Virus record (IMG/VR): IMGVR_UViG_2698536485_000021
Direction: 5' to 3' (one strand)
DNA: 36,937 nucleotides
Origin: a virus
Lineage: Duplodnaviria; Heunggongvirae; Uroviricota; Caudoviricetes
This document shows positions 28,991 to 32,194 of the stretch, piece by piece. The notes beneath the pieces are model-generated. The model was not told the origin of the DNA and did no database searches. It was given only the letters and a program-made list of their open reading frames with translations. The position numbers and the translations under genes were made by a program. Numbering within the stretch: the stretch's first letter is position 1; each line of letters opens with the position of its first letter.

Positions 28991-29124
28991 CGGTTGACGA
29001 TCTGGTGGCTGATATCGCCACCATCTTTCACTGGCCGCCATCCGTTACTGACGTTATGCCGCTGACCGAAGTGCTGGAATGGCGGTATAAAGCGATTCAG
29101 AGAAGCGGGGCCAACGATGAGTGA
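28688..29124 (+). CDS. E+E' tail chaperone made by programmed -1 frameshift at TTTTTTG (28945-28951); shifted frame runs to TGA at 29122-29124
   Basis: The -1 frame is open from the slippery heptamer to 29124 and overlaps the T start, the canonical P2 E/E' arrangement. Confidence 0.7.
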
Positions 29125-32100
29125 TAATAACCTGCGCCTGCAGGTCATTCTTAATACGGTTGACAAACTCACCCGCCCATTCCGTGCTGCACAGGCCAGT
29201 TCGAAAGAGCTGGCTGGCGCAATTCAGAATACCCGAAACAGCCTCAAAGAACTGAATAAGCAGGCTGGCAGAATTGATGAATTTCGCTAGACGCGCTCGC
29301 AACTAGCCATAACAGCCAATAACCTGAACGCAGCCCGCGAAGAGGCGGCAAAACTCGCCACACAATTTGCTGCCACTAACAGGCCAACCGCCGCGCAGGC
29401 AAAGTTATTCAGTCAGGCCAAAACACGAGTACAGGAACTTCAGCAGACCTATAACGGCTTGTTGGGGGCGGTCCAGAGACAACGTCAGGTACTTAAAGAA
29501 TCAGGGATTGATACCAGACAACTCAGTAGTGCCCAGCGAGAACTTAAGAAAAATGCTGAAGAAACAAGGCAGGCACTGGAGGGCCAGCAAAAAGCACTTA
29601 AACGTCTGGGTGAACAACAGGCACGGATGAACGCTGCCAGAGAACAATACTCAAGACGGCTTGAAGTGCGCGATCGCATCGCAGGAGCCGGAGCCACTAC
29701 CACGGCTGCAGGGCTGGCAATGGGTGCGCCAGTGATGGCGGCAGTAAAAAGCTATACCAGCATGGAAGATGCCATGAAAGGTGTGGCAAAGCAGGTCAAT
29801 GGTCTGCGTGACGATAATGGCAACCGCACCGCACGTTTTTATGAAATGCAGGATGCCATCAAGGCTGCCAGCGAACAGTTGCCGATGGAAAACGGTGCGG
29901 TGGACTTCGCTGCACTGGTTGAAGGTGGTGCGCGCATGAACGTCGCAAACCCTGACGACAGCTGGGAAGACCAGAAACGTGACCTGCTGGCCTTCGCCAG
30001 TACGGCAGCAAAGGCGGCAACAGCCTTTGAGCTGCCAGCGGATGAACTGTCAGAAAGTCTGGGGAAAATCGCCCAGCTCTACAAAATACCTACCCGCAAT
30101 ATTGAACAGCTCGGCGATGCGCTGAACTATCTGGATGATAACGCCATGTCGAAAGGGGCGGACATCATTGATGTGATGCAACGTCTGGGCGGTGTGGCTG
30201 ACCGTCTGGATTATCGTAAAGCGGCGGCACTGGGTTCCACCTTTCTGACACTGGGCGCTGCGCCGGAGGTTGCAGCCAGTGCAGCAAACGCGATGGTGCG
30301 TGAATTATCCATTGCCACCATGCAAAGCAAGAGTTTCTTTGAAGGGATGAATCTGCTGAAACTCAATCCTGAAGTGATTGAAAAGCAGATGACGAAGGAT
30401 GCGATGGGAACTATCCAGCGTGTGCTGGAGAAGGTGAACGCACTGCCGCAGGACAAGCGTCTGTCTGCCATGACCATGTTGTTTGGTAAAGAGTTTGGCG
30501 ATGACGCGGCGAAACTGGCAAACAACCTGCCGGAACTGCAGCGCCAGCTAAAACTGACAGCGGGCAATGATGCGCTCGGCTCCATGCAGAAAGAATCCGA
30601 CATCAACAAAGACTCACTTTCTGCTCAGTGGTTGCTGGTCAAAACCGGAGCGCAGAACACCTTCAGCAGCCTGGGCGAAACGCTGCGCCAGCCGCTGATG
30701 GATATTCTGTACACGGTGAAAAGCATCACGGGGGCGTTGCGCCGCTGGGTGGAAGCTAACCCGGAACTGACAGGCACACTGATGAAAGTAGCGGCTGTTG
30801 TGGCTGCGGTTACCGTAGGCCTCGGCACCTTAGCGGTGGCGCTGGCTGCAGTTCTGGGGCCGCTGGCAGTGATCCGTCTGGGATTTTCTGTGCTGGGCAT
30901 CAAAACGTTACCTTCCGTTACGGCAGCAGTAACACGAACCAGCAGCGCGTTGTCCTGGCTGGCAGCCGCACCACTGGCAGTGCTGCGACGCGGGCTTGCT
31001 TCATCGGGCAACGCAGCGGGTTTACTTACTGCTCCGTTGTCGTCTTTGCGTCGCACGGCATCACTGACGGGAAATGTCCTGAAAACTGTAGCTGGTGCGC
31101 CGGTTGCACTGTTCCGGTCTGGATTATCAGGTTTACGTGCTGTTGCTGTGATGTTTATGAATCCACTGGCAGCACTACGCGGCGGGCTGGCTGCCGCAGG
31201 CGCGGTGCTGCGAGTGCTGGCATCCGGCCCGCTGGCGATGCTGCGCGTTGCTCTGTATGCCGTATCTGGTCTGTTAGGTGCTCTGCTTAGTCCGATAGGT
31301 CTTGTGGTTACTGCACTGGCGGGTGTGGCGTTGGTTGTCTGGAAATACTGGCAACCCATCACTGCATTTCTCGGTGGCGTGGTGGAAGGATTCAAAGCGG
31401 CGGCAGGTCCCATCAGTGCCGCATTCGAACCACTTAAGCCCGTGTTCCAGTGGATTGGCGACAAAGTGCAGGCGCTGTGGGGCTGGTTTACTGATCTGCT
31501 GACGCCCGTTAAGTCGAACTCTGCCGAACTGCAGAGCGCAGCGGCAATGGGGCGACGATTCGGGGAGGCACTGGCGGAAGGGCTGAATATGGTCATGCAT
31601 CCGCTGGACTCCCTGAAATCCGGCGTTTCCTGGTTGCTGGATAAACTCGGCATTGTCAGTAAAGAGGCTGCAAAGGCGAAACTGCCGGAAAGCGTGACGC
31701 GTCAGCAACCTGCGACGGTGAATGCAGACGGTAAAGTGATGATGCCATCGGGTGGTTTTCCGTCATGGAGATATGGCTTTGCGGGGATGTATGACAGCGG
31801 CGGCTATATTCCGCGCGGGCAGTTTGGCATCGTCGGTGAAAACGGGCCGGAAATTGTTAACGGCCCGGCAAACGTGACCAGCCGGAGAAATACAGCTGCA
31901 CTGGCTGCCATTGTTGCCGGAATGATGGGCGTTGCTGCCGCGCCTGCAGAGCTTCCACCGTTGCATCCTTTGGCGCTTCCCGCGAAAGGTGGTGAAGCGA
32001 TGATGAGTCGCGCAGCCACTGTGCCGCCCGTTCAACGGATTGAGGCACCGACGCAGATCATCATCCAGACGCAGCCAGGACAAAGTGCTCAGGATATTGC

Positions 32101-32194
32101 GCGGGAGGTGGCACGCCAGCTTGATGAACGTGAACGCAGGCTGAAGGCAAAAGCCAGGAGTAACTACAGCGATCAGGGGGGATACGACGCATGA
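29117..32194 (+). CDS. T: Tail tape-measure protein T, single in-frame amber codon at 29288-29290
   Basis: ATG 29117 after E; same frame continues from 29291 to 32194 with no other stop; long helical A/L/G-rich protein typical of tape measures. Confidence 0.8.

Follow-up and report, generated by a model that had tools for sequence, protein, structure and literature searches.

The window analysed here is the whole 36,937-nucleotide (nt) stretch of DNA in the viral record IMGVR_UViG_2698536485_000021 (Caudoviricetes), and its gene of interest is the tape-measure gene T, which carries an in-frame amber codon. The window begins at the integrase stop codon (position 1), covers a 186/P2-like genome up to a junction at approximately 34173, and continues into ybjL, ybjM and grxA. 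The element is a 34-kb 186/P2-like (Peduoviridae) prophage located between rcdA/int and ybjL.

Gene T, the homologue of P2 gpT and 186 gpG, occupied 29117-32194 on the plus strand. Its start and length were as in the intact coding sequences (CDSs) of phage Cartapus and Escherichia coli FDAARGOS_497. Retranslation gave 1025 codons with a lone internal stop and a terminal stop, in agreement with the initial annotation, which had described a frame open from ATG 29117 except for one TAG. The internal stop was the TAG at 29288-29290 (plus strand), which is codon 58 in the context RIDEFR*TRSQL. The start codon of T overlapped the stop codon of E' (ATGA). The intact homologues consisted of one 3078-nt CDS from the same ATG, and this indicated that the T frame was a real gene and not a chance open reading frame (ORF). 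The portion of T located 3' of the amber matched Pfam PhageMin_Tail PF10145 (E=1.8e-18, 67.6 bits versus a cut-off of 33.2). In addition, T was flanked by the E/E' chaperone pair on its 5' side and by U and D on its 3' side, as is gpT in the P2 family. Both observations supported the identification as a P2-family tape-measure gene that had been proposed at the outset. However, members of this family have an uninterrupted full-length frame, which the TAG at codon 58 breaks in T. T is a pseudogene of the P2-family tape-measure family and not a functional member.

Several other readings of the T frame were considered and rejected. The initial annotation had put P2 T at about 815 amino acids (aa) and had remarked that T would be longer. 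The P2 figure was right, since P2 T has 815 aa (186 G has 812 aa), but 1025 aa was the standard length throughout the Cartapus/FDAARGOS_497 clade and the length was not an anomaly. A two-gene arrangement, in which a separate small gene would precede a shorter tape measure starting downstream, had been named as a finding that would overturn the amber; it was rejected because the homologues were single CDSs. Programmed read-through or recoding was also rejected, as the stop was absent from the same position in divergent homologues.

The origin of the stop was examined with a 61-nt query centred on the TAG, which matched 205 complete E. coli genomes. Codon 58 was AAG in the exact 61-mer of 166 of these 205 genomes with the segment, and the sampled variants carried AAG or, once, AAT (Asn). 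Altogether, a sense codon was present at this position in 199/205 genomes and in phage Cartapus. By this comparison of homologues, the ancestral codon was AAG (Lys58), and the stop arose by an A-to-T transversion at 29288. A CAG-to-TAG transition had been suggested earlier, but the relatives carried Lys or Asn at codon 58 and not Gln. A suppressor inserting glutamine would not bring back the wild-type residue, although codon 58 appears to be tolerant.

An exact match to the TAG allele was found in six of the 205 genomes. These were 2014C-3061 (human, USA), 13E0780 and 13E0725 (cattle, Germany), and OkiPb01680, OkiPb01683 and OkiPb01700 (bovine, Japan), and they stemmed from three laboratories in three countries. 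T was flagged as a pseudogene with an 'internal stop' by RefSeq (Prokaryotic Genome Annotation Pipeline, PGAP) in all six. In public assemblies, gene calls on 656 contigs included the exact 57-aa N-terminal fragment of T, and those on 207 contigs included the 855-aa ORF starting at ATG171. The prophage was adjacent to ybjL in 24/24 long contigs that were read, and the draft-assembly look-up spanned only 10 kb from T. The rcdA/int...ybjL context was the same in the six complete genomes, which indicated vertical inheritance at one site. The window differed from the six sister genomes by 2-6 single-nucleotide polymorphisms (SNPs) over 36.9 kb, and no insertions or deletions were seen except for the extra frameshifts of two members. 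The lineage was cattle-associated Shiga toxin-producing E. coli (STEC) of sequence types (ST) 300/688, with serotypes O156:H25/O182:H25 where typed. The strains 13E0780 and 13E0725 are ST300 STEC of serotypes O182:H25 and O156:H25 and were sequenced by PacBio at approximately 200x (PMC5427212); the lineage of both German strains is known for persistent colonisation of cattle (PMC5359238). These two strain papers gave the serotype and sequence type and contained nothing on the prophage. Twelve coding SNPs varied within the lineage, and nine were nonsynonymous and three synonymous, a near-neutral ratio. One nonsynonymous SNP in T itself, Ala125Val at 29490 (plus strand), was located 3' of the amber and was polymorphic in the lineage.

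The initial annotation had allowed that resequencing might restore CAG at codon 58. The single-base difference from the 199 other genomes is what a sequencing or assembly artefact would look like. However, three groups had assembled six complete genomes with the very base seen in the window, two of them by PacBio at 200x, and the exact truncated product was called on the 656 contigs. Six independent genomes and these contigs excluded a sequencing error, and we give an artefact practically no credence. The amber allele is real and fixed in a widespread lineage, at one chromosomal site.

Gene T is an essential tail gene of P2-family phages by classical genetics. The P2 record likewise labels T 'essential tail protein'. 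Termination at codon 58 would leave a 57-residue peptide and no full-length tape measure, and because T is essential and no tape measure would be made, tails could not be built. The earlier proposal of a true nonsense mutation that would block tail assembly was therefore upheld. In addition, Rho-dependent polarity of the amber on U and D is likely and would lower their expression.

The amber was accompanied by other lesions. The gene of the 186-type repressor cI (2834..3430, minus strand) was a pseudogene as well, judging from comparison with E. coli UMNF18 and phage KP12. Gln80 was changed to an ochre codon (CAA to TAA) at 3191-3193, with A at 3193 on the plus strand; otherwise all 597 nt were identical to intact cI in both UMNF18 and KP12. 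The ochre was common to the same six sister genomes. CI was 33% identical to 186 CI (E=1e-34), and in the alignment Gln80 fell where the N-terminal DNA-binding domain ends, at the LLTGEG motif. The predicted product was a 79-aa fragment with only the helix-turn-helix. Thus homology to 186-type CI was evident, but the C-terminal oligomerisation domain that accompanies the N-terminal helix-turn-helix was lost to the ochre. In 186 CI, the C-terminal domain is required for the 14-mer wheel and for cooperative binding (PMC3675496). Because the ochre removes this domain, the 79-aa CI would be expected to be a poor repressor.

A probable lytic promoter, equivalent to pR/Pe, was located at 3424..3452 on the plus strand. 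It consisted of TTGACA at 3424-3429, which overlapped the complement of the cI start codon, a 17-nt spacer and TGGTAT at 3447-3452, where G at 3448 replaced A. It pointed toward apl/cII and abutted the repressor start, in the same layout as the annotated pR in 186 and Pe in P2. TAGTAT was found in all five sampled relatives with intact cI (UMNF18, KP12, phage 813R9, L73 and 2017.02.04CC). When the cI-apl intergenic region of UMNF18 was scanned, the single sigma-70-like site, with 10/12 matches, was this promoter. The scan of the same region in the window found no promoter, as the scanner demands A at position 2 of the -10 element. The G at this position was present in the six lineage genomes only, among 166 genomes with the 61-mer at this site. 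The A at position 2 of the -10 element is the most conserved promoter base. Because this base was changed, TGGTAT in place of TAGTAT very probably weakens the lytic promoter strongly. Separately, two intergenic SNPs relative to the UMNF18 prophage were observed in the early operon, at 3762 (between the apl-like gene and cII) and at 4862 (between DUF5347 and DUF2732); they might affect, for example, a pE-like promoter or a terminator.

The retron gene was also broken. A retron Ec67-type RT-Toprim gene (PADLOC RT-Toprim I-C; 10354..12110, plus strand) had lost 1 nt from an A run and was thereby divided in two. The retron ncRNA (msr/msd) would be expected upstream of it, at about 9700-10350. The ORF at 10354-11856 (500 aa) corresponded to profile positions 7-455 of 568, and the ORF at 11889-12110 (73 aa) corresponded to positions 485-555. 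The window had A5 at 11778-11782, while eight non-lineage genomes with the retron had A6 and a single 585-aa CDS. The retron frameshift was therefore specific to the lineage. All four lesions (T amber, cI ochre, -10 change and retron frameshift) were present in 6/6 complete genomes. Further damage was found in two of them. The large terminase gene (13191-14957, minus strand) was frameshifted by an extra A at 14263 in 13E0780 from Germany and OkiPb01683 from Japan, which also shared a SNP pattern; the window was without this insertion. These two strains form a sub-lineage with further prophage decay.

Two cargo genes were intact in the window. A 558-aa protein with DUF4041 and T5orf172/MUG113 nuclease domains was encoded at 1137..2813 on the minus strand, between int and cI. 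It matched PADLOC PD-Lambda-1 (E=6e-120), a SNIPE-type defence protein, and newer PGAP runs named it 'SNIPE associated domain-containing protein'. SNIPE reportedly cuts phage DNA once it is injected and associates with tape-measure proteins from siphoviruses entering the cell (bioRxiv 10.1101/2025.11.03.685801). Here, a SNIPE-type gene resided in a prophage with its own tape measure broken, and no functional link was evident. The second gene (25423..26544, minus strand) encoded an acyltransferase of the Acyl_transf_3 family and lay between the tail-fibre assembly and sheath genes. It is a moron with a putative role in surface-polysaccharide modification. It was frameshifted in the sister strain OkiPb01683.

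The genes around T were intact. The tail assembly chaperones E (28688-28990) and E' (29005-29124) lay at 28688..29124 on the plus strand and were assigned from PF10109 and the sequence. A P2-type -1 slippery signal, T TTT TTG, was intact at 28945-28951 in E, leading into E', and the P2 record annotates a -1 frameshift for E+E'. Downstream of T, the region 32191..34082 on the plus strand contained intact ORFs for the tail genes U (32191-32676) and D (32673-33773) and the late activator ogr/B (33864-34082). At the prophage-host junction, a 14-bp repeat at 34160..34173 adjoined ybjL and was assigned as a candidate attachment (att) core by comparison with the sister genome 2014C-3061. The second candidate copy was located just outside the window, beside int. 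No tRNA genes were found in the window. Homology to phage KP12 stopped at 34173. The record containing this KP12 sequence, OM835953.1 ('Klebsiella phage KP12 clone KP12_3'), was filed under Vequintavirinae with a Klebsiella host. It was a P2/186-like element, 96-98% identical to the E. coli prophage described here, and its tape-measure region was annotated piecemeal. The contig appears to be a prophage that was co-assembled, or a contaminant, and not part of the named phage.

These results suggested how the amber could have been fixed. The initial annotation had treated it as a single defect in an otherwise live prophage, but this did not fit the cI ochre, the probable -10 mutation and the retron frameshift. 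Together with the T amber and the sub-lineage terminase frameshift, they are several independent lesions, as found in defective prophages. A cI-null 186-type prophage should kill its host, and a crippled lytic promoter would best explain how the cI ochre was tolerated. The promoter may have mutated first, making cI dispensable, or cI may have been lost first and the promoter mutation then selected because it compensated for that loss. In either order, the outcome would be a non-inducible prophage locked in the chromosome. Without early transcription, there would be no excision, no replication and little late expression, and the remaining phage genes would drift while being inherited vertically. 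The T amber would be one hit of such drift. The switch is probably dead on both sides. We are highly confident that the T amber is a genuine fixed nonsense mutation in a vertically inherited, grounded prophage under relaxed selection, and one symptom of general decay.

A more specific scenario couples these events. Loss of cI through the ochre at its domain boundary, lethal because lytic transcription would be constitutive, would have been rescued by the A-to-G change in the -10 element, and the silent prophage would then have become fixed in a globally spread bovine STEC with its nuclease and acyltransferase kept, the T amber starting its neutral erosion. We regard this coupled order as a tentative and rather unlikely possibility. 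If true, such compensatory grounding would be a natural, datable example of prophage locking.

Several points weighed against the reading of a decaying, locked prophage. The other phage ORFs were all full length, so the decay must be recent. A close intact sibling of the tail module, which would have dated the amber, was sought in complete genomes and none was found, the next best being 97.8% identical. Likewise, no intermediate that would order the lesions was found, as the six complete genomes carried all four. The promoter is a probable assignment made from its consensus match and its positional analogy to 186/P2. The absence of particle production is predicted from sequence. The check for suppressors covered the Gln tRNA cluster of one sister genome, OkiPb01680. 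Finally, selection, and not neutral drift, could conceivably account for the amber.

Selection was weighed in this light. Tail production might have been switched off as an active domestication that kept the PD-Lambda-1/SNIPE-type nuclease and the acyltransferase. Both cargo genes were intact while four phage/retron functions were broken, and the lineage is a successful persistent coloniser of cattle (PMC5359238). However, a T knockout would leave replication and lysis unaffected and offers no obvious protection. The retron, itself cargo, was broken, the acyltransferase had been lost to a frameshift in one member, and the SNP spectrum was near neutral. Positive selection of the amber was thus considered improbable. 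A different possibility was that tails, perhaps shorter ones, are still made from a shorter tape measure by re-initiation, for example at ATG171, or by natural UAG read-through. In-frame starts 3' of the amber did exist at TTG115 and ATG171 (29627, the start of the 855-aa ORF reported by gene callers), and the sequence 3' of the stop still encodes the PF10145 domain as well as the hydrophobic C-terminal two-thirds. A ribosome-binding site was sought before these downstream starts and no convincing one was found. ATG171 was preceded by a weak AGG, and neither start had a strong Shine-Dalgarno sequence. In addition, the N-terminal 170 residues were kept in 199/199 intact homologues, and internal starts are not known in P2-family T genes. 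Given the further damage to the lytic promoter and cI, nothing pointed to selection for a working tail. A functional shortened tape measure was therefore judged very improbable.

The last alternative was that a host suppressor tRNA keeps the prophage functional, either a supE-like amber suppressor, as the initial annotation had raised, or an ochre suppressor reading both the T amber and the cI ochre. The coding lesions in essential genes are both nonsense (TAG in T and TAA in cI) and would be readable by an ochre suppressor, and Gln or Lys inserted at codon 58 would probably be tolerated, since the relatives have either Lys or Asn there. However, an amber suppressor such as supE cannot read the cI ochre, and ochre suppressors are weak and costly. 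No tRNA could suppress the promoter change or the frameshifts in the retron and, in the sub-lineage, the terminase. In the glnX-glnV-metU-glnW-glnU cluster of OkiPb01680, the anticodons of the four tRNA-Gln genes were ctg, ctg, ttg and ttg, all wild type, and neither supE nor a Gln ochre suppressor was present. The exact supE44 glnV allele occurred in 155 records. The 60 matches listed were K-12-laboratory-like, which served as a positive control for the query, and included none of the six lineage genomes. Suppression was therefore given hardly any weight, and the reading of a locked prophage in decay was retained.

The T amber is an ordinary type of lesion, already flagged by annotation in six RefSeq genomes, and it represents no new kind of biology. 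With a nonsense codon in the repressor gene and a -10 change in the lytic promoter that faces it, the element neatly illustrates prophage lock-in in nature. Automated tools would probably score this 34-kb prophage as intact, yet in all likelihood it is dead, a point of relevance when inducibility and gene transfer are predicted for prophages of cattle-associated STEC ST300/688. A further lesson is that suppressors should be invoked only once an in-frame stop has been weighed in the light of the entire element.

The prophage was compared with known systems. It resembled the cryptic/defective prophages of E. coli in being chromosomally fixed and vertically inherited at one site, with several independent lesions, sub-lineage lesions and near-neutral SNPs. 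It differed from them in that decay was early, there were no deletions or insertion-sequence insertions, and the other ORFs were full length. The order int-cI-(pR/pL)-apl-cII-fil was the same as in the switch of phage 186 (cI, face-to-face pR/pL, apl and cII) and P2 Pe/Pc. However, the -10 element here had G at position 2, cI was cut at the end of the DNA-binding domain, and the PD-Lambda-1 gene lay between int and cI. Among Elveevirus-type Peduoviridae, phage Cartapus had a T gene 97.1% identical over 3.3 kb, with 1025 codons and the same flanking genes. In contrast, Cartapus had Lys58 and an intact ORF, and its immunity region was only distantly related. Laboratory amber (sus) mutants of P2 T likewise have their nonsense codon in this essential tail gene, and in a non-suppressing host they are expected to give filled heads without tails. 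The allele described here differs in that it is natural in wild STEC, has no suppressor host and is accompanied by other lesions.

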